This document shows positions 7,746-19,632 of a stretch of DNA of 64,000 nucleotides, one piece after another. Each line of letters starts with the position of its first letter. The stretch's first letter is position 1. A program made the translations under genes and the position numbers. The stretch is from IMG/VR virus record IMGVR_UViG_3300045988_062257. One strand, given 5' to 3'. The notes below the pieces were generated by a model that worked only from the letters and a program-made list of their open reading frames with translations, was not told the origin of the DNA and did not search any database. This stretch comes from a virus.

Positions 7746-8216
7746 ATGGCGAATAAGTACATTTCCAATGTAGAACTCGGCAGTACCATTTACTCCCTTA
7801 AAGATAAAGAAGCAAGAGCCGCGGTCAATGCATTACAAACCGCGGTTTCTTCTTCTTTAGTCTTTAAAGGTGTCGTCTCTAGTGCTGCCGATCTTACTAG
7901 TCTAAAGAATTACAAAGTCGGTTGGACATATAAAGCTAATGCATCTTTCGAGATTGCTTCTCTGGGCAAGCTTGAAGTAGGTGATATGATTATATGTATC
8001 AGCAATTATAGTTCTAGCTATAAAGCAAGTGACTGGACAGTAGTTCAAAACAATGTAGATACTATGACTGGGGCTTCCTCTACGGCCGCGGGCACGAGAG
8101 GTTTAGTACCAGCACCTCAAGCTAATGATAACGAAAAATATCTTCGAGGCGATGGAACATGGGGTTCTCCCGCCGCTGATGTTGCTTGGGGAAGTTTCAA
8201 TGATTTAATAGGATAA
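7746..8216 (+). CDS. Putative structural protein (shares IYSLKDKEAR motif with previous gene)
   Basis: RBS AAGGATGG. Paralogous N-terminus to 6475-7692. Confidence 0.4.
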   Translation: MANKYISNVELGSTIYSLKDKEARAAVNALQTAVSSSLVFKGVVSSAADLTSLKNYKVGWTYKANASFEIASLGKLEVGDMIICISNYSSSYKASDWTVVQNNVDTMTGASSTAAGTRGLVPAPQANDNEKYLRGDGTWGSPAADVAWGSFNDLIG

Positions 8217-8241
8217 GCCATTTGGCTTATCCTATTTTTTT
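8209..8241 (+). terminator. Rho-independent terminator (AGGATAAGCCA-TTT-GGCTTATCCT plus T9)
   Basis: Perfect 10-bp stem and T-run. Confidence 0.65.
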
Positions 8242-8329
8242 TTGCATTTTTTCAAAATATATTGTATTATATGTATATAAGATAAAAGAGGAAAGACCTT
8301 TCCCCAAACAAAAGCACAGTTTGAAAATA

Positions 8330-8382
8330 ATTAAAAATTATATTATAATATATATAGTAAATGAGAAAAGGAGTTATAAGTT
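8330..8382 (+). promoter_or_regulatory. Promoter motif plus leader (ATTATATTATAATATATATAGTAAATGAGAAAAGGAG)
   Basis: Instance of the repeated promoter/leader motif before the gene at 8383. Confidence 0.4.
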
Positions 8383-8715
8383 ATGTATCCGATTGAGAAG
8401 TATAAGTTTTATACCAATGGTTCTCGCGTAATTGCAGTTTCTACCTATGCGGGCAAGACTGTGCGAGGTGTTGCCGTTTGCCACGCTGGTGATGCATTCT
8501 CTCTGGAGAAGGGCAAGAAGCTCGCTGCTCTGCGGTGTGCGGAGAAGATTGCCAAGAAGCGTGTTGCTCGTGCCAATCGAAAGGTGGATGAGGCCTATTG
8601 GGCGTATGTCGATGCGGAGGCTTATCTCGATAAGATGGTCGATTATAAGGACGATGCCCTCTATGAGTTGAACGAGGTCGTCGCTGCCAAGAACGATATG
8701 CTTGATAGCCTGTAA
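8383..8715 (+). CDS. Hypothetical protein (110 aa)
   Basis: Preceded by the promoter motif and RBS AAAGGAG. The antisense ORF 8374-8847 is judged spurious. Confidence 0.45.
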   Translation: MYPIEKYKFYTNGSRVIAVSTYAGKTVRGVAVCHAGDAFSLEKGKKLAALRCAEKIAKKRVARANRKVDEAYWAYVDAEAYLDKMVDYKDDALYELNEVVAAKNDMLDSL

Positions 8716-8752
8716 GGAAATATCCTGAGCAAGATATAAAACTGCTCTATTC

Positions 8753-8846
8753 GGAGGATTAACCCTAATTGGCAAGGGAGCGGTCCTGAAAACCGCCAGT
8801 AACCGTGAACAACGGCGTAAGAGTTCGAGTCTCTTATCCTCCGCCA
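8753..8846 (+). tRNA. tRNA-Ser (anticodon TGA), class II
   Basis: Acceptor GGAGGAT/ATCCTCC, anticodon arm GCGGT-CCTGAAA-ACCGC (C at position 33 is unusual), long variable arm CCGT-GAACA-ACGG, T-arm AAGAG-TTCGAGT-CTCTT, discriminator G, CCA. Confidence 0.65.
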
Positions 8847-8876
8847 ACGAATTAGACGAGAAATAGGAGGTAAAAG

Positions 8877-9230
8877 ATGGACGCTTTAGAATTTTTGAAA
8901 GAACGGAAAAGAATGTGCAACTTATACAGTCATTGCAAGGGCTGCCCGCTTGACGGAAGCAAATGCGTTATTGACAATGCTGTCTCCGATGAAGATTGCA
9001 AAAGATTCGCCGCTTCCGTTGAGCAATGGTCGAAGGAACACCCGCGCAAGACGCGGCAGAGCGTGTTTCTGGAGCAGTATCCGGAGGCACGCATCGGAGA
9101 TGACGGTGTGTTGCAAATATACCCCTGCTCAATTTCCCCGTCGCACAGGAACGCACGAGGTAACTGCGCAACTATGGGACGCGAATGCTCCGACTGCCGC
9201 CGCGAGTTCTGGTCGCAAGAGGTGGAGTGA
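8877..9230 (+). CDS. Hypothetical Cys-rich protein
   Basis: RBS AGGAGGTAAAAG. Multiple CxxC-like pairs. Confidence 0.45.
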   Translation: MDALEFLKERKRMCNLYSHCKGCPLDGSKCVIDNAVSDEDCKRFAASVEQWSKEHPRKTRQSVFLEQYPEARIGDDGVLQIYPCSISPSHRNARGNCATMGRECSDCRREFWSQEVE

Positions 9231-9254
9231 TGAAAGCAAATGAGAAATTTGCAA

Positions 9255-9300
9255 AAATATAAATATTATGATATAATATTTATATAAGGTAAGGGAAGAA
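9255..9300 (+). promoter_or_regulatory. Promoter motif (TATGATATAATATTTATATAAGGTAAGGGAAG) upstream of the tRNA/Y-RNA block
   Basis: Instance of the repeated promoter motif. Confidence 0.4.
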
Positions 9301-9315
9301 CTTCTTCCCTTGTAT

Positions 9316-9402
9316 GCCCAAGTAGAAGAACTGGTATATTCAGCAGGCTCAAACCCTGCCGTCGAAAGACATCTGTGGGTTCGAATCCCACCTTGGGTAC
9401 CA
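9316..9402 (+). tRNA. tRNA-Leu (anticodon CAA), class II
   Basis: Acceptor GCCCAAG/CTTGGGT, anticodon arm GCAGG-CTCAAAC-CCTGC, long variable arm (GTC-gaaa-GAC), T-arm GTGGG-TTCGAAT-CCCAC, discriminator A, CCA. Confidence 0.75.
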
Positions 9403-9495
9403 ATGGCGCCGGCTATCGCGTAATACCGGATAATCAAAGAGGTATCGGTTGAAGATGGTTCGAAACATCCAAATCTTATGGCCTCCGCCATGCCA
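9403..9495 (+). ncRNA. Candidate Y-RNA-like ncRNA (long terminal helix with internal loop plus two internal hairpins, one T-loop-like)
   Basis: 5' ATGGCG-CC-GGCTAT pairs with 3' ATAAGGCC-TC-CGCCAT (about 12 bp with a 2x2 internal loop), enclosing hairpins ATACCGGATA...TATCGGT and GATG-GTTCGAAA-CATC. Ends GCCA. Lies 250 nt upstream of a Ro60/TROVE gene. Confidence 0.35.
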
Positions 9496-9498
9496 AAT

Positions 9499-9585
9499 GC
9501 GAACGTAGTCAAGTGGTTTAAGACCCCGGCCTGCAAAGCCGTGTGACCCGTAAGGGCGTGAGTTCGAATCTCACCGTTCGCTCCA
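9499..9585 (+). tRNA. tRNA-Cys-like (anticodon GCA, discriminator U) with an atypical long variable arm
   Basis: Acceptor GCGAACG/CGTTCGC, D-arm GTC-AAGTGGTTTAA-GAC, anticodon arm CCGGC-CTGCAAA-GCCGT, 15-nt variable region GTGACCCGTAAGGGC, T-arm GTGAG-TTCGAAT-CTCAC, U73, CCA. Long variable arms are not expected for Cys. Confidence 0.5.
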
Positions 9586-9710
9586 TAAGACCTTAACAGC
9601 AATAAAAAATGGACTGTAAATCCGTCGCTTATGCTACGCAGGTTCGAATCCTGCCCTCCCCACCACTATATGGCGGAGGTAGGGAAGTGGTTAAACCCAA
9701 CGGAACCAAA
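9586..9710 (+). ncRNA. Circularly permuted tRNA-like module (3' half followed by 5' half); candidate YrlA-type Y RNA
   Basis: Order is anticodon-like arm ATGGA-CTGTAAA-TCCGT, T-arm GCAGG-TTCGAAT-CCTGC, acceptor 3' strand CCTCCCC-A-CCA, 6-nt loop, acceptor 5' strand GCGGAGG, TA, D-arm GGG-AAGTGGTTAAA-CCC, then ACGGA (complementary to TCCGT). This is a tRNA body closed at the acceptor end and open at the anticodon end, immediately upstream of rsr. Confidence 0.35.
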
Positions 9711-9779
9711 AAGAAAAGGTCTAGAATCTAATCTCCCTTGTCCAAGGGAGTAACTAAAAATCAAAAGGAGATTGATACG

Positions 9780-11270
9780 ATGAATACTTTTATGAACGCT
9801 ATGAAGCAAGATACCAACTTTACCTTGACTGAGAATGGTGCTATTACCCATAAGTCCACTCTGAATGGTCTTATGGATTTGTTTGCGCTTGGCGGAGCAT
9901 ATCGCACTCGCTCTGACGCAGATTGCATCACTTTGTTTAAGGCGGCTTTTGACGAGGATGAAGCTCATGCTTTGAAGTGCCTATTCTACCTGCGCGATGT
10001 GCGCGGCGGCCAGGGCGAGCGTCGTTTCTTCCGCGTTGTAACTAATTGGCTTGCTTCTCACGAAACTGAGGCTATGCGTCGTAATCTCCAGTTTGTGCCC
10101 GAGTACGGTCGCTGGGATGACCTGTATATCTTCGTTGGCACTCCTCTGGAGAAGGACGCCTTCAATCTGATGCGCCATCAGCTGGCTTTGGATGTTTCTT
10201 GCAAGACTCCTTCTCTGCTTGCTAAGTGGCTGAAGTCTGAGAATACCAGCTCTAAGGAATCTCGCCATCTGGCGGTGATTACTCGCAATCATTTCGGCAT
10301 GACCGCGAAGCAGTATCGTAAGACCCTTTCCACTTTGCGTGAGCGTATCCGCATTGTCGAGCGCCTCATGTCTGAGAATCGTTGGGACGAGATTGAGTTC
10401 GATAAGATTCCTTCTCGCGCCGGTGTAATTTATCGCAATGCGTTTGCTCGCCGCGATATGATTAAGGCTAAGTACGAGGCTTTCGCTAAGGACACTGAGA
10501 CTAAGGTTAATGCCAGTGCTCTCTATCCTCACGATATTGCACATCGTGCCTTTGAAGCCAATCGTAAGGGATTGGGCGATCCTGATCGTCTGATGCTTCA
10601 GAAGTATTGGGAGAACCTTCCTAACTACTACGGCGATAATATCGAGAATGGCATTGCTGTTGTCGATGTTTCTGGCTCTATGACCGGTGTTCCTATGGAG
10701 GCTGCGGTTTCTATGGGTGCGTACATCGCAGATAAGGCGCACGGTCCTTTTGCCAACCACTTCATTACCTTCTCTGGTAATCCTGAGTTGGTGAAGTTCG
10801 AGGGGGCAGACATTACCGATAAGTTGTGCCGTTGCATTGGTGCGGATTGGGGTATGAACACTAATATCGAAGCTGTCTTCGATATGCTGCTCAGCACCGC
10901 AATGAAGCAAAGTGTAAAGCCTGAGGATATGCCTACTCGCGTTTATATCTTCTCTGATATGGAGTTTGACAAGTGCGTTATCAGTAACTCTACTGGTCGG
11001 GGTGGCTGGGGATATGGTATGCACAGCGATGCCATCCAGACTCTCTTTGAGGCTATGAAGGCTAAGTGGGCACGCTACGGTTACAAGATGCCTAGCTGCA
11101 TTTTCTGGAACCTGAACGCCCGCAATAACAACATTCCCGCAATCGGTGACGGCTTTAGCTATGTAAGTGGCTTTAGCCCTGTCATGATTCAGCAGATTCT
11201 CAGCGGCAAGGACGGACTCGATCTGGTTCTTGAGAAGCTGGATAGCGAGCGTTACGCTCAGATCCACTAA
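9780..11270 (+). CDS. rsr: Ro60/TROVE-domain protein with C-terminal vWA domain (Rsr-like)
   Basis: About 500 aa, N-terminal TROVE-like region and a MIDAS-containing vWA segment (VVDVSGSM ... S..T). RBS AAAAGGAG before ATG 9780 (ORF table starts at an upstream in-frame codon, 9738). The antisense ORF 9981-11267 is judged a shadow ORF. Confidence 0.55.
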   Translation: MNTFMNAMKQDTNFTLTENGAITHKSTLNGLMDLFALGGAYRTRSDADCITLFKAAFDEDEAHALKCLFYLRDVRGGQGERRFFRVVTNWLASHETEAMRRNLQFVPEYGRWDDLYIFVGTPLEKDAFNLMRHQLALDVSCKTPSLLAKWLKSENTSSKESRHLAVITRNHFGMTAKQYRKTLSTLRERIRIVERLMSENRWDEIEFDKIPSRAGVIYRNAFARRDMIKAKYEAFAKDTETKVNASALYPHDIAHRAFEANRKGLGDPDRLMLQKYWENLPNYYGDNIENGIAVVDVSGSMTGVPMEAAVSMGAYIADKAHGPFANHFITFSGNPELVKFEGADITDKLCRCIGADWGMNTNIEAVFDMLLSTAMKQSVKPEDMPTRVYIFSDMEFDKCVISNSTGRGGWGYGMHSDAIQTLFEAMKAKWARYGYKMPSCIFWNLNARNNNIPAIGDGFSYVSGFSPVMIQQILSGKDGLDLVLEKLDSERYAQIH

Positions 11271-11278
11271 ACCCTTTC

Positions 11279-11326
11279 AAACGGGGAAATGGCAAGAAAA
11301 TTGCCATTTCCCCCGTCTTTTCTATT
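11279..11326 (+). terminator. Rho-independent terminator (AACGGGGAAATGGCAA-gaaaa-TTGCCATTTCCCCCGT plus T-run)
   Basis: 16-bp stem followed by CTTTTCT. Confidence 0.65.
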
Positions 11327-11390
11327 TATTGAAAAATAATTTAATTTATGATATAATAAATATATAAGGTAAGGAAAGGAAGTTACATAG

Positions 11391-12278
11391 ATGAATCCAT
11401 TTGAAATGCCATTCCCAAGTTTGTTTACATCTTCATTTGAACCACCAGCGCGATCTGCTTCTGATTATTCTCTATATCGAGAAGACTTTGGTAGTATTTA
11501 CAGTTTACTGAATACTATCAATAACCGTGAAAACAATAGCTTCATGCGTAACGAAGATTCGTCTCAGGAACGTGGAAATGAAGAGTGGAGTGGCACTTCT
11601 TCTTATGAAGAAGCTCAATCTCTCTTGATTCATGGCTATGAAGATCCGGTTAAAAGTATCAAGAGCAGTTTAGCTAAAAATAAGAAACTGACAAGTAAAA
11701 TCTACAATTCAATTCCTAAGCCCATAGTCCAAAATAGAGTGGTAGGATTTGTTCCAAATGTACCCAATGCTCTTAAAGGACTGCCGGAATCTATGATTAC
11801 ACTGGAAAAACTCCATAAGAAGAGAAAGACCATCTCTATTATCTATGCTACGGGCGGTAGCTGTGGCGTAGAAAGTGATGTTCTGGCATCCGCGGGCTCG
11901 GCGCTTGTATCCGCCATCAACCTCATTGAGTTGTCCGGTGTGCAAACTGAATTGTCGGTTGGTTTTATGCCTACGAAAGAAACTAAGCAGATTATTTTCC
12001 CGACTGTGAAGATTAAAGGCTATGGCGAACGCTTTAATTTGCAGAAAATCTGCTTCCCGATGATTCACCCTGCAATGTTTAGACGAATTGGCTTTAAGTA
12101 CCTTGAAACTTGTCCTGGTATGGTAGAAAATTTTTCTCATGGTTATGGCCGTCCGCCTGAGCTTGAAGTTTTGAAGACTCTTATCAAGGATAAAAATACC
12201 TATGTGATTAACCGTGCGTGGATTACTGAACATGAAAATGATATTGAAGAAATTCTTAAATATATGGAGGTCTGCTGA
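11391..12278 (+). CDS. Hypothetical protein (295 aa)
   Basis: Promoter motif plus RBS AAGGAAAGGAAG upstream. No recognisable domain by eye. Confidence 0.45.
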   Translation: MNPFEMPFPSLFTSSFEPPARSASDYSLYREDFGSIYSLLNTINNRENNSFMRNEDSSQERGNEEWSGTSSYEEAQSLLIHGYEDPVKSIKSSLAKNKKLTSKIYNSIPKPIVQNRVVGFVPNVPNALKGLPESMITLEKLHKKRKTISIIYATGGSCGVESDVLASAGSALVSAINLIELSGVQTELSVGFMPTKETKQIIFPTVKIKGYGERFNLQKICFPMIHPAMFRRIGFKYLETCPGMVENFSHGYGRPPELEVLKTLIKDKNTYVINRAWITEHENDIEEILKYMEVC

Positions 12279-12279
12279 T

Positions 12280-13239
12280 ATGAATAGAGATAAGATGCTC
12301 GAAGCAATGATGAAGGCGGTGACTGATGCGGTCGTCGACGTGAATGTGGAAGAAATTCTGGCAAAAGTGTATCCTCAGATTGATGAGAAAATTCACGAGA
12401 CTTATGGTTTCCTGCCGGAGGTTCATGAAGTGCGGACGCCGACTACGACTCATAAGATCTGCGGCACTACGCATGAGAAGTTTGACGAAGTTCTCAATAT
12501 CGTCAATCTGGATATCCCCGTTTATCTGACCGGCAAAGCGGGCACCGGCAAGAATGTCATTTGTCAGCAGGTCGCGGAATCTCTGGGTCTGGATTTTTAC
12601 TTCACAAACGCTGTTACGCAGGAGTACAAGCTGACTGGCTTCATTGATGCCAACGGCAATTATCAGGAAACCCAGTTTTATAAAGCTTTTACGAAGGGTG
12701 GTCTGTTCTTCTTGGACGAGATGGACGCGTCTATCCCTGAGACCCTGATTATTTTGAACGCGGCCATCGCGAATAGATACTTCGACTTCCCCAACGGCAA
12801 AGTTAGTGCGAACCCTAACTTTAGAGTCATCGCTGCTGGTAATACGGTTGGTACTGGTGCAGATAATAACTACACTGGTCGCTATTGCTTGGATAGAGCA
12901 AGTCTTGACCGTTTTGCTATGGTGAACATCGACTACTCTGAAAAGATTGAGATGGCTATGGCAGATAACAACAAGAGTCTAGTATCTTTCTGCCATCGTT
13001 TCAGAGAGATTACCGATAAGGCTGGCATTGAGTGCTTGTTTTCTTATCGTACTATTGATAGAATTGCAAAACTCGAAACGGTAATCAACAATCTATCCGA
13101 GGTTCTGTCTATCTCACTACTTAAGGGCATGGACGAAGATACTTTGTCTATTCTTAAGAACGAGCTGTCTGAAGCTAAGGATATGACAAATAACAAGTAT
13201 GCGAAAGCTATTATCAATGGTAATAGCTGGGATTTTTAA
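12280..13239 (+). CDS. MoxR-like AAA+ ATPase
   Basis: Walker A LTGKAGTGKN and Walker B LFFLDEMD. Size and motif spacing match MoxR/RavA-type ATPases. ATG 12280 with RBS TATGGAGG (ORF table start 12214 is in frame). Confidence 0.55.
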   Translation: MNRDKMLEAMMKAVTDAVVDVNVEEILAKVYPQIDEKIHETYGFLPEVHEVRTPTTTHKICGTTHEKFDEVLNIVNLDIPVYLTGKAGTGKNVICQQVAESLGLDFYFTNAVTQEYKLTGFIDANGNYQETQFYKAFTKGGLFFLDEMDASIPETLIILNAAIANRYFDFPNGKVSANPNFRVIAAGNTVGTGADNNYTGRYCLDRASLDRFAMVNIDYSEKIEMAMADNNKSLVSFCHRFREITDKAGIECLFSYRTIDRIAKLETVINNLSEVLSISLLKGMDEDTLSILKNELSEAKDMTNNKYAKAIINGNSWDF

Positions 13240-18363: not shown

Positions 18364-19632
18364 ATGGCATATTTTGGTTTGGTAACTAAGTTGCAGAACT
18401 GCCGTAAGGACGAGAACTCTGATCGTCTGTATCTGGCAGATTGCTTCAATGAGGGCGTTATCGTCGGCCCCGATATGAAGACCGGTGATCTGGTTCTGTA
18501 CCTGCCGACCGATGGTCAGGTAGATCATTGGTTTGGCGATAAGTTTACCTTGTTCCGTAAGAATGAGGATGGTACTGAGCAGGGCGGTTATCTGGAGAAT
18601 AACGGTCATGTGCGGGCTATCAAGCTTCGTGGCAACGAGAGTTCTGGCATCGTCATCTCTCTTGAGCGTGTCTATGAGACTTTCGGCAATCAGCATTGGA
18701 AGAACGGAGATAAGATAAATACTATCAATGGTAAGGAGTTCTGCCGTAAGTATATCCCTAAGCGTAAGACTCCGAGCACCACTCCTAAGACTTCCTACAA
18801 GGGTCGTAAGGCAGAGGGTATTACCTATCCTGAGTTTGCAATGCATACTGACACCGAGCAGCTTGCATACAATCTGGATAAGTTCCGTCCCGGCGATGAG
18901 CTGAATATGACTCTTAAGATGCATGGCACTTCTCAGCGTTCCATGAACACCTTTGCTGAGCTACCCAATGGCTTCTTCCGTCGTCTATTCCATATGAAGA
19001 AGCGTCTGAAGCAGGCTTATGTTCTCGGTACGCGCCGTTGTGTTGTAACTGAGAACTCTCAGGGCTACTACGGCAATGATCTATTCCGTATGTCTCACCA
19101 TGAGGCATTGAAACCCCATCTTGATCCTGGTATGGAGGTCTTTTACGAGGTAGTAGGGTACTACGGTCCCTCTGAGAATGATACCATCATGCCTATCGGC
19201 GATAACTCCAAGCTAAAAGATAAGGCTTTCCAAAAGCTGTTCGGTAAAAAGTCTATCTTCTCCTACGGCTGCAAGCCCGGTGAGTCCCATATGTGGATTT
19301 ATCGCATCACTTCCGAGAATGGTCAGCGTGAGTGGACTCCTGACGAGATTACTGCTTGGTGCGAGAAGCATGGCTTTAATCGTGTCCCGGTGATTGAGAA
19401 CTTCAAGTTCACTACTGCCGAGGACCTGCAGGACCGCATTAACAAGTATTTCGAGGACTTGGTCGATCCTATCGGTAAAACTCATGTTAAAGAGGGCGTT
19501 GTAGTTCGTATCGTCAACCGCCGCGCCTTTACTGCTTTCAAGTCTAAGACTTACGAGTTCAAGGTGCTTGAGGGTATTATCAAAGAGACTGAGACTGCTC
19601 CAGATATGGAGGAGGCACAGGACGAAGTATGA
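18364..19632 (+). CDS. ATP-dependent RNA ligase, Rnl2-like
   Basis: Nucleotidyltransferase motif I KMHGTS (Rnl2 KIHGTN-like), motif IV EGVVVR, motif V FKSK. Confidence 0.5.
   Translation: MAYFGLVTKLQNCRKDENSDRLYLADCFNEGVIVGPDMKTGDLVLYLPTDGQVDHWFGDKFTLFRKNEDGTEQGGYLENNGHVRAIKLRGNESSGIVISLERVYETFGNQHWKNGDKINTINGKEFCRKYIPKRKTPSTTPKTSYKGRKAEGITYPEFAMHTDTEQLAYNLDKFRPGDELNMTLKMHGTSQRSMNTFAELPNGFFRRLFHMKKRLKQAYVLGTRRCVVTENSQGYYGNDLFRMSHHEALKPHLDPGMEVFYEVVGYYGPSENDTIMPIGDNSKLKDKAFQKLFGKKSIFSYGCKPGESHMWIYRITSENGQREWTPDEITAWCEKHGFNRVPVIENFKFTTAEDLQDRINKYFEDLVDPIGKTHVKEGVVVRIVNRRAFTAFKSKTYEFKVLEGIIKETETAPDMEEAQDEV

Follow-up and report, generated by a model that had tools for sequence, protein, structure and literature searches.

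Introduction

Animals, about 5% of bacteria and a few phages are known to possess Ro60 proteins with Y RNAs, whose role in phage infection has, to our knowledge, barely been explored. In this study, we analysed a 64,000-nt stretch of viral DNA, IMG/VR record IMGVR_UViG_3300045988_062257 (the window below; L numbers denote the related loci compared with it), and focused on an open reading frame (ORF) at 9780-11270 and the small RNAs that precede it in a transfer RNA (tRNA) cluster. An earlier note on this DNA had read the ORF as a Ro60/TROVE gene and a 93-nt element at 9403-9495 as its Y RNA.

The bacterial YrlA RNAs are built from a terminal stem that encloses a variable (V) arm, a T arm, an acceptor-like stem-loop and a D arm (Chen et al. 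2014, PMC4201824). Wang et al. likened them to circularly permuted tRNAs in which a loop closes the acceptor stem (bioRxiv 10.1101/312249). The YrlA of M. smegmatis is the only one with a 7-bp stem, and it is cut by RNase P and gains CCA (PMC4201824). Phage phiLo carries a Ro60 gene with Yrl1/Yrl2 just upstream, and its Ro60 binds host PNPase in vitro (PMC12135203). The Ro60-like protein gp130 of Bas63 (Felixounavirus) is reported to counter the Ppl defence; no RNA was identified in that work, in which some 'tRNAs' were guessed to be Y RNAs (bioRxiv 10.1101/2024.10.10.617714).

Results

A probable Ro60-like/Y-RNA-like pair in the window

We assign a probability of roughly 0.7 to the reading that this locus encodes a Ro60-like/Y-RNA-like pair, in which the partner RNA is at 9586-9724, 9249-11313 is one transcription unit, and the RNA tethers a tRNA mimic to the protein. 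Three observations carry this reading: the RNA has a conserved, covarying structure, the gene product has a predicted Ro60 fold, and such RNAs recur beside DUF2828 genes in unrelated phages. The general idea of the earlier note, a Ro60-like gene beside a tRNA-mimicking Y-like RNA in a tRNA cluster, holds, and its choice of RNA does not: the RNA at 9586-9724 lies one tRNA downstream of 9403-9495, within the coordinates that the note covered, and went unnoticed there.

The RNA occupies most of a 194-nt non-coding leader between a tRNA with a GCA anticodon and the ORF (Table 1). Read as a tRNA in permuted (YrlA) order, the leader shows in turn a V arm, a T arm, an acceptor stem-loop and a D arm. 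The 3' end of the GCA tRNA (9585) defines the 5' end of the RNA (9586), and the RNA ends 56 nt before the start codon at 9780 on the same strand, well within the 4 kb expected of a YrlA. Its 7-bp terminal helix and the conserved ACAGCAA are together called the handle here. The V loop starts with a YUAY motif, as described for YrlA (PMC4201824), and C9637 corresponds to C48, which forms the Levitt pair with G15 (9687). The nucleotides that make tertiary contacts in tRNA are all present, namely U9680 (U8), A9686 (A14), G9687:C9637 and G9689-G9690 (G18G19), together with the UUCGAAU loop (9643-9649; U54U55C56 and A58) and G9642:C9650 (G53:C61) in the T arm. The acceptor stem-loop consists of CCUCCCC (9655-9661), the discriminator A9662, CCA (9663-9665), the linker CUAUAUG (9666-9672) and GCGGAGG (9673-9679). 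ARAGORN and the Rfam tRNA model detected no canonical tRNA in 9586-9724; the fold gave z = -2.8, and the Rfam family tmRNA_permuted (RF04321) matched weakly at 9638-9681.

A BLASTN search revealed relatives of this RNA, unannotated, in three phages. In Rhizobium phage RHph_Y65, the RNA lies 90 nt upstream of a TROVE + vWA_Ro60 gene and its tRNA-like domain is 78% identical, and in Cronobacter phage LPCS28 and Klebsiella phage KP13-16 it lies downstream of a DUF2828 + DUF7788 gene. Between the window and these three phages, the differences in the acceptor and anticodon stems are fully compensated, and the D arm is identical. A 19-nt stretch of the D-arm region, UAGGGAAGUGGUUAAACCC, is the same in four phages of different hosts, and its stem covaries in distant members.

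A covariance model, R1, was constructed from seven window-type sequences with a hand-derived structure; only these were used, because MAFFT put the acceptor and handle strands in the RNAs of four distant phages out of register. R1 found further members beside DUF2828 genes in Lolly9, wV8, PK-3 and many IMG/VR loci. A second model, R2, gave sharper matches, and all 75 of its 75 matches at E ≤ 0.01 were on the strand of the gene. The RNA at 9586-9724 scored 168.5 bits with R1 and 134.7 bits with R2. A strict regular-expression scan for permuted tRNAs upstream of 80 related genes recovered close relatives only, and reaching further required the covariance models. Across 22 phage sequences, in alignments fitted to the model, 93.6% of cells paired, compared with 66.4% after shuffling and at most 51% with slid partners. 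Changes on both sides were found for 27 of the 29 pairs, and all six helices covaried. A few weak hits among the 22 may be tandem tRNAs, which would add mismatches rather than support.

The 'anticodon stem' (9621-9625 with 9700-9704) joins the tRNA-like domain to the handle and shows compensatory changes in RHph_Y65, LPCS28, KP13-16 and L035. A local hairpin, UGGA-CUGUAAA-UCCG (9610-9624), could form in its place in the window clade and L035; this candidate was ruled out, as it is absent from LPCS28, KP13-16 and RHph_Y65 and the long-range stem covaries everywhere. The NCCA in the acceptor loop is kept in the window-type RNAs, in L035, LPCS28, KP13-16 and RHph_Y65, and in a second RNA of the window at 3127-3239.

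The protein has a predicted Ro60 fold

The ORF of 496 aa with its Shine-Dalgarno sequence confirms a gene at the coordinates that the earlier note gave. A Pfam scan of the protein returned DUF2828 (2e-27), DUF7788 (2.7e-46) and a weak VWA_2 match, and PHROGs placed it in phrog_850, 'RNA-binding protein' (3.5e-129). No match was found by phmmer against PDB sequences, and an NCBIfam search gave nothing useful. The predicted architecture is an N-terminal helical-repeat (HEAT-like, TROVE-like) domain followed by a C-terminal von Willebrand factor A (vWA) domain with a MIDAS (metal ion-dependent adhesion site), whose DVSGS motif occupies residues 296-300 (nt 10665-10679). D296, S298, S300, T361 and D393 of the MIDAS are invariant across 41 homologs, in agreement with the MIDAS-containing vWA C-terminus that had been described.

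Searches with the predicted fold showed that matches spanning both domains were to Ro60 proteins only: the Ro60 of Thermus phage phiLo (9l5y_B; 14.6; 369), Rsr of D. radiodurans (2nvo_A; 13.3; 255) and Xenopus Ro60 (1yvp_A; 12.0; 285), with an identity of 8-18% in the structural alignments. The 'TROVE-like N-terminus' of the earlier note is thus upheld at the level of the predicted fold and not by hidden Markov model (HMM). TROVE homology by HMM was a refuting test set in the earlier note, and the protein failed it, the protein being DUF2828/DUF7788 and phrog_850 instead of PF05731. The RHph_Y65 protein, scanned identically in Pfam, does match TROVE (2.6e-13). Fold, domain order and MIDAS agree with membership in the Ro60/TROVE family, and the TROVE HMM does not. 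These findings indicate that the protein is Ro60-like by predicted fold and domain order, outside Pfam TROVE (PF05731).

By tblastn, DUF2828 homologs were found in 704 phage records, whereas a TROVE-type phage Ro60 query found 87. The homologs include those of Felixounavirus, Listeria, Staphylococcus, Campylobacter and Vibrio phages and of cluster-L-type mycobacteriophages, and the mycobacteriophage homologs, DUF2828 proteins as well, carry the annotation 'Ro-like RNA binding protein'.

Handle RNAs recur beside DUF2828 genes

The DUF2828-linked RNAs share their ends, reading (A)AGAC-N3-4-(A/U)ACAGCAA at the 5' side and N3-4-GUCU(U)G at the 3' side. Same-strand handle RNAs were located no further than about 2.5 kb from DUF2828 genes in phages of Cronobacter (LPCS28), Klebsiella (KP13-16), E. 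coli (wV8), Bacillus (PK-3), Staphylococcus (S-CoN_Ph5), Campylobacter (CPX) and Mycobacterium (Lolly9). Mini versions that consist of the handle only were found in wV8, Lolly9, PK-3 and others. In the TROVE-linked RHph_Y65, the tRNA-like domain is kept and the 5' side reads UGCGAAUG, with the CGAA-type motif of classical YrlA and phiLo Yrl; this swap is as expected if the end module matches the protein partner.

For an RNA-first test, a 14-base handle pattern was scanned over IMG/VR. Complete handles, with the closing helix, had a DUF2828 gene in the fetched stretch in 9 of 30 cases, all nine on the same strand and at 0.1-3.8 kb, compared with 3 of 93 matches without the closing helix (odds ratio 12.9, p = 1.4e-4). 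With a fixed 3' strand, the handle pattern found one IMG/VR locus. A limited literature search returned no paper linking DUF2828 to Y RNAs; some DUF2828-linked mycobacteriophage RNAs may previously have been listed as YrlA by Chen et al. 2014.

Two of these loci also bear on annotation. In Lolly9 (L098 3744-4124), three handle motifs lie in the 380-nt 'empty' gap that follows the Ro-like gene gp54: a mini RNA at 3787-3835, a YrlA-type RNA at 3846-3976 and a third motif at 3991; the DNA of this gap is annotated as a hypothetical protein in the sister phages (MiniLon 58, Finnry 55 and Samty 55). In wV8 (L101 6329-6586), the minus-strand coding sequence gp48, a hypothetical protein, overlaps a plus-strand YrlA-type RNA at 6361-6488, and the gp48 call is probably spurious.

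The association could also mean that the handle is a processing or stability signal of tRNA-cluster transcripts, such as a nuclease or RNA-chaperone site, and that the gene is merely a frequent resident of such clusters. The handle RNAs of the window at 336-3239 lie up to 9 kb from the gene, the gene was in the fetched stretch for only nine of the 30 RNA-first hits, binding of the handle by the protein is itself a deduction, and tRNA clusters gather many small genes and RNAs. Against this explanation, which we consider unlikely, the handles lie 20-400 nt from the gene in five phages (Lolly9, CPX, S-CoN_Ph5, PK-3 and the window), of which Lolly9 has only one ordinary tRNA nearby; complete handles were 13-fold enriched over incomplete-motif controls; and RHph_Y65 exchanges the handle for the CGAA-type motif while retaining the tRNA-like domain.

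Results that weigh against the pairing

Several results count against a Ro60-like/Y-RNA-like pair. On the RNA side, the 5' region of 9586-9724 reads UAAGACCUUAACAGCAAU and does not contain the YrlA motif GNCGAA(N0-1)G, and Rfam YrlA (RF02553) gave no hit on it even at E ≤ 10 in a 171-nt search. Measured against YrlA, the RNA has the architecture, the tertiary contacts and the proximity to the gene, and it has neither the 5' motif nor the gathering score of 69 bits. The pair counts given above come from alignments fitted to the model and lean towards structure. On the protein side, TROVE was absent from the Pfam scan at E ≤ 1, and when a DUF2828 alignment (a shallow one, whose members all share 65% identity or more) was compared with a phage TROVE protein by hhalign, no more than 15 residues aligned, those surrounding the MIDAS. 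The predicted structure is of moderate confidence with three disordered stretches, and the Ro60 relationship rests on it because the HMM and profile comparisons give no more than the MIDAS stretch.

Genomic context also supplies points of this kind. Adjacency alone is weak evidence, because phage tRNA clusters and the DUF2828 gene co-locate anyway. Many DUF2828 loci at 55-67% identity had no strong RNA match within 3 kb, and Vibrio phage nt-1 had none within 4 kb of its DUF2828 gene. In one close relative (L007/L084), the 5' two thirds of the Y-like RNA are deleted between T loops and the gene is intact, so that either the RNA is not indispensable or the contig is defective. The deletion (L007 2817-2945, equivalent to L084 about 4270-4470) appears to be a recombination between GGTTCGAATCC T loops; it apparently also took the 93-nt element and the GCA tRNA, leaving tRNA-Leu fused to ..ACCA-CUAUACG-GCGGAGG...

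A proposed mechanism

In the mechanism that we infer, which covers transcription, processing, protein-RNA binding, RNase P cleavage and a cellular role, the promoter, tRNA-Leu, 93-nt spacer, GCA tRNA, Y-like RNA, Ro60-like gene and terminator would be co-transcribed as one unit; promoter and terminator bracket 9249-11313. Processing of the flanking tRNA would release the Y-like RNA. The Ro60-like protein would then bind the handle, with ACAGCAA as the proposed recognition site, and the handle would be the counterpart of the GNCGAA(N)G/CGAA stem of bacterial YrlA. By analogy with M. smegmatis YrlA, RNase P would probably cut 5' of G9673 and exonucleases would trim back to CCA9665; the cut is expected because the RNA has a full 7-bp acceptor stem and an encoded A-CCA. 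The result would be a tRNA mimic in two pieces that has its CCA end free and is tethered to the protein ring. The RNA may act as a gate of the ring and link the ring to a host factor that binds tRNAs or degrades RNA, as in the Rsr/Y RNA/PNPase and phiLo Ro60/Yrl/PNPase assemblies, and the outcome could be changed RNA turnover or blunted host defence during infection. A counter-defence role is possible by analogy with Bas63 gp130 against Ppl.

The 93-nt element at 9403-9495

The position that the earlier note gave for its candidate, between tRNA-Leu (9316-9402) and the tRNA-Cys-like gene (9499-9585), is correct. At its ends, A9403-G9408 pair with C9486-T9491, followed by a 2x2 internal loop and a second helix of six pairs in the minimum-free-energy fold and five in the centroid. 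The two enclosed hairpins, one with the T-loop-like GGUUCGAAAC, are present in sequence and fold; GGTTCGAAAC at 9457-9466 sits in a 4-bp hairpin with an 8-nt loop. The element also has a 3' G-CCA (9492-9495), which the note did not mention.

Read as a Y RNA, the element would bind Ro through the helix with the 2x2 loop and mimic a T arm with the GGUUCGAAAC hairpin, perhaps in the role of a second partner of the YrlB kind. The helix, the hairpins and the G-CCA tail are real, and the element begins exactly after the CCA of tRNA-Leu and would be freed by tRNA processing. Bacteria usually have at least two Y RNAs, some second ones with a T-arm-like hairpin (PMC4201824). A 17-mer of the element, GATGGTTCGAAACATCC, is also found in tRNA clusters at six more large-phage loci (L108, L110-L113 and L115) with an adjoining tRNA-like piece and flanks of weak similarity, although no DUF2828 gene was found in the available stretches of these loci. 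The fold of 9403-9498 is no better than that of shuffled sequences (-24.8 kcal/mol against -22.9 +/- 3.0; z = -0.63; 53 of 200 shuffles as good). The roughly 12-bp end helix exists, but comparable ones are as common in shuffled sequence: the first 20 kb contain 277 helices in which 12 or more of 14 pairs form and the arms are separated by 50-90 nt, against 234-316 in shuffles.

Comparison and family searches gave the same picture. The element is present in only four near-identical IMG/VR relatives (five copies with the window's), and the substitutions among the five are all unpaired or wobble-neutral, with zero compensatory changes. Equally close relatives, with a 95-99% identical protein, keep the gene and the 9586-9724 RNA, yet carry other sequence in this slot, an unrelated 108-nt sequence in L004 and L013 and a 298-nt insert with a small lipoprotein ORF in L008. 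No Rfam family matched the element (window at gathering threshold; 9200-9800 at E ≤ 10), Y_RNA (RF00019) was absent at E ≤ 10, and the covariance search with Y RNA models that the earlier note had proposed gave neither a Y_RNA nor a YrlA match. ARAGORN and the Rfam tRNA model found no canonical tRNA in it. The element lacks the handle motif common to the RNAs linked to DUF2828 proteins, and no R1 or R2 match belongs to it: the sole overlapping R2 match, at 9330-9543 (21 bits), mispairs the tRNAs on either side and passes over the element. A Y RNA at 9403-9495 therefore has no statistical, comparative or family support, and we regard it as improbable, even as a second partner. It may well be that tRNA processing sets the element free as a small RNA.

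The hairpin GGAUGGUUCGAAACAUCC of the element recurs in L108 (4312-4480), L111 (6507-6680), L113 (517-634) and L115 (about 740-880). In these loci, a covarying hairpin with a UAAUUAC-like loop lies ahead of it, and a tRNA-like piece with an acceptor-like stem, a D-like arm and a T arm comes after it. The RNAs with this hairpin have no annotation, and none of them reaches the gathering score of any Rfam family.

An improbable alternative: tRNA debris or a permuted tRNA gene

It is very improbable, and the least likely of the explanations considered, that 9586-9724 is unlinked to the protein and is either debris, in which recombination in the cluster joined the 3' two thirds of a tRNA-Tyr to another tRNA's 5' third, or a true permuted tRNA gene that yields a working tRNA via circularisation, as in the red alga Cyanidioschyzon merolae. 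CUGUAAA followed by UCCGU does resemble a tRNA-Tyr anticodon arm, with a vestigial AUGGA ahead of CUGUAAA as a tandem-duplication origin would predict; T-loop recombination does happen here, as in L007, Chen et al. cautioned that tandem tRNAs can mimic YrlA (PMC4201824), and an RNA ligase gene lies at 18364-19632. Neither half, however, belongs to a complete tRNA, and the covariation of all seven terminal-helix pairs and of the long-range anticodon stem indicates selection on the permuted fold as a single unit. The same design occurs with quite different sequences in phages of five bacterial phyla or classes, and several members, with a closed acceptor loop lacking CCA and no anticodon-like loop, cannot become tRNAs. 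A normal tRNA-Tyr is already present in the window at 3909-3994, and neither a bulge-helix-bulge motif nor a splicing endonuclease is evident.

Handle RNAs elsewhere in the window

GACNNNNACAGCAA occurs four times in the window, compared with 0.09 expected, and with variants included there are at least six handle RNAs, all on the + strand within the tRNA cluster (Table 1). The RNA at 336-444 starts just past a promoter cassette, and its cargo is a non-permuted cloverleaf that ARAGORN calls as tRNA-Cys(ACA) at 363-432 and the Rfam tRNA model matches at positions 4-67 only. Some of the RNAs at 336-444, 609-753, 1192-1348 and 3127-3239 sit directly after promoter cassettes. In 1670-1793, a 55-nt insert replaces the anticodon loop and holds a loop-closed handle (AGGUCUAG-UAA-AUAGACCACGACAGCAAC), which is the un-permuted topology of the same design; like RNAs occur in LPCS28 and KP13-16. 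ARAGORN missed 1670-1793, and the Rfam tRNA model matches it only under lax filters. Similar bodies were observed in L082 (1216-1339 and 1346-1461) and L083 (2569-2682), with perfect 7-bp acceptor stems and NCCA; in place of the anticodon loop, such bodies have an insert of 45-55 nt that contains a hairpin of 6-7 bp and, after it, (A/U)CAGCA, which is the closed form of the handle.

In the RNA at 3127-3239, the tRNA-like domain is permuted, its acceptor stem has 7 bp and the acceptor loop carries G-CCA. This RNA matched Rfam YrlA RF02553 over its full length at 29 bits, below the gathering score and in a short-range search only, and related phage RNAs reached 34-40 bits, likewise sub-threshold. 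Most handle-bearing tRNA bodies keep the 7-bp acceptor stem and an encoded NCCA.

More tentatively, and with the odds still against it, DUF2828 proteins and handle RNAs may form a large unrecognised family of phage ribonucleoproteins, in which the handle has been grafted on several tRNA bodies per genome. Such a family would have three topologies, permuted, un-permuted with the handle replacing the anticodon loop, and attached via the acceptor end. Real tRNA 3' ends would be displayed on a Ro60-like ring, where they could serve in decoy or capture of defence nucleases, CCA-adding enzyme, synthetases or exoribonucleases, or in phage tRNA repair.

Comparison with known systems

The RNAs of the window resemble YrlA in the terminal stem formed by their ends, the V-T-acceptor-D order, the tertiary-contact nucleotides and the presence of several RNAs per genome, and also in lying on the same strand less than 4 kb from a Ro60-type gene and in having a 7-bp acceptor stem, as in M. 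smegmatis YrlA. They differ in scoring below the Rfam gathering score, in the 5' motif, which is GAC-N4-ACAGCAA and not GNCGAA(N)G, in encoding CCA in the acceptor loop and in having a DUF2828 rather than a Pfam TROVE partner. The window-type handle is also found on un-permuted tRNA bodies and on non-tRNA cargos. The permuted tRNA genes of C. merolae and RF04321 likewise place the 3' half first and have CCA, a short linker and the +1 nucleotide, whereas the window RNA lacks an anticodon loop that could be restored, a bulge-helix-bulge, an mRNA-like portion and a reading frame for a tag.

The protein shares with Ro60/Rsr (1yvp, 2nvo and 9l5y) the predicted helical repeat and MIDAS vWA domain, a similar size and adjoining Y-like RNAs. 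It differs in escaping the TROVE HMM and phmmer, in aligning by hhalign at the MIDAS only, and in its low identity. By analogy with these proteins, it may close into a ring, bind Y RNA on the outside of that ring and pass RNA 3' ends through the hole. With phiLo the locus has in common a phage Ro60-type protein and Y-like RNAs upstream, and the phiLo protein is the best structural match; the phiLo protein, however, is a recognisable TROVE, and its RNAs have a CGAA motif and have been described as stem-bulge-stem RNAs and not as permuted tRNAs. The 9586-9724 RNA and the protein are probably a pair that works like Ro60/YrlA, yet the protein fails the TROVE HMM, and the RNA falls short of Rfam YrlA in both threshold and motif.

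The interest of these findings goes beyond a single locus, as they expose a widespread unannotated phage RNA-protein pairing. DUF2828, far commoner in phages than TROVE, has a predicted Ro60 fold and is annotated as 'RNA-binding protein', 'vWFA protein' or hypothetical, and it comes with its own class of tRNA-mimic RNAs that present tools miss. These RNAs score under the Rfam YrlA threshold, are in GenBank either left without annotation or overlapped by a 'hypothetical protein', and are sometimes taken for odd tRNAs. Several 'tRNAs' of phage clusters, such as the tRNA-Cys(ACA) at 363-432, are probably not decoders. The handle gives a concrete binding prediction and a simple search key. The Ro60-like fold and the position by a tRNA cluster suggest that Bas63 gp130 belongs to the DUF2828 family, and if it does, handle RNAs are the obvious missing component of the reported anti-Ppl counter-defence.

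Layout of the locus and neighbouring features

The tRNA cluster opens the window with 12 ARAGORN calls at 363-9585, all on the + strand, and the locus described here lies at its end. Table 1 lists the features of the locus and the other handle RNAs.

Table 1. Coordinates of the locus, of the parts of the Y-like RNA and of the other handle RNAs in the window
Feature	Position	Strand	Basis or remark
Handle RNA (GAAGACGCUU-GCCGCAA...GGCGUCUUG)	336-444	+	R2 22.5 bits; fold
Handle RNA (AAAGACCUAU-ACAGCAA...GUGGGUCUUG)	609-753	+	Cargo not tRNA-like
Probable handle RNA, variant motif GUCAGCAA (AAGACGCUAG-UCAGCAA...UUAGCGUCUUG)	1192-1348	+	Weakest member; fold z = -0.5
tRNA body (7-bp acceptor stem, D arm, T arm, G-CCA)	1670-1793	+	Rfam tRNA 48.6 bits, positions 1-71
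Second YrlA-type RNA, handle AAAGACGCAU-ACAGCAA...AUGCGUCUUG	3127-3239	+	R1 41.5 bits; R2 79.2 bits; fold z = -4.6
Putative sigma-70-type promoter	9249-9277	+	TTGCAA, 17 nt, TATAAT, TG extension; consensus scan
tRNA-Leu(CAA), type II, CCA encoded	9316-9402	+	ARAGORN; Rfam tRNA 51.9 bits
93-nt spacer RNA (candidate of the earlier note)	9403-9495	+	Sequence and fold
tRNA with GCA (Cys) anticodon, U73, long variable arm, CCA encoded	9499-9585	+	ARAGORN; Rfam tRNA 57 bits
YrlA-type Y-like RNA, 139 nt	9586-9724	+	Covariance models R1/R2; fold; covariation
Handle helix, 5' strand AGACCUU	9588-9594	+	Pairs with 9716-9722; 7/7 pairs change on both sides across phages
Single-stranded ACAGCAA	9596-9602	+	Conserved; just 3' of the handle helix strand
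CUGUAAA, vestigial tRNA-Tyr anticodon loop	9614-9620	+	Sequence
UCCGU, tRNA positions 39-43	9621-9625	+	Pairs with ACGGA 9700-9704
Variable-arm mimic CGC-UUAU-GCUAC	9626-9637	+	Covarying 2-3 bp stem
T arm GCAGG-UUCGAAU-CCUGC, canonical T loop	9638-9654	+	100% of cells paired; 4/5 pairs covary
Acceptor stem-loop	9655-9679	+	7 bp, C2-C71 mismatch; 7/7 pairs covary
U8-A9, D arm GGG-AAGUGGUUAAA-CCC (A14, G15, G18, G19, A21), A26	9680-9699	+	Sequence
ACGGA, tRNA positions 27-31	9700-9704	+	Partner of 9621-9625
Handle helix, 3' strand AAGGUCU	9716-9722	+	Family end usually ..GUCUUG
7-bp hairpin CUCCCUU-GUCC-AAGGGAG, no U tract	9733-9750	+	In the 5' leader of the gene; conserved in close relatives
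Shine-Dalgarno AAGGAG	9765-9770	+	Ahead of the 9780 ORF
Ro60-like protein gene, 496 aa	9780-11270	+	ORF
Intrinsic terminator, 13-bp stem and T-rich tail	11283-11313	+	Strong terminator

The promoter at 9249-9277 belongs to a cassette (..TGATATAAT..TATATAAGGTAAGG), of which a second copy lies at 11329-11357 and a looser relative at 300-335. The cassette (..TTATGATATAAT/TTGTTATAAT..TTTATA(G/T)AA..) is repeated at 300-335, 760-800, 9246-9292 and 11329-11375, ahead of small RNAs or genes, which suggests many short independent transcription units in the region. The hairpin at 9733-9750 may be a processing or stability element. The tRNA at 9499-9585 combines Cys identity marks (GCA anticodon and U73) with a type-II variable arm, which is unusual in tRNA-Cys, and this combination is kept in close relatives.

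A DUF7192 protein and an AAA_5 (MoxR-like) ATPase are encoded directly downstream of the Ro60-like gene (11391-13239), and MoxR-like AAA_5 ATPases are the usual partners of vWA proteins. The RNA ligase gene mentioned above (PF09414) lies 7 kb beyond them. These neighbours fit an RNA-centred module. In Listeria phage LMTA-148, RtcB lies about 1.3 kb downstream of the DUF2828 gene.

Two further features of the tRNA cluster were observed. After an HNH endonuclease ORF, the non-coding stretch at about 3005-3123 ends in a T arm, ACGAG-UUCGAGU-CUCGU, followed by CGCCCGC-A-CCA; no matching 5' acceptor strand was found upstream, and the stretch directly precedes the handle RNA at 3127. At 4166-4239, ARAGORN calls a tRNA whose anticodon loop has 8 nt and whose anticodon, 'taaa', has four bases (Rfam tRNA 36.2 bits); this tRNA could be a frameshift or stop suppressor or a further non-decoding tRNA-like RNA.

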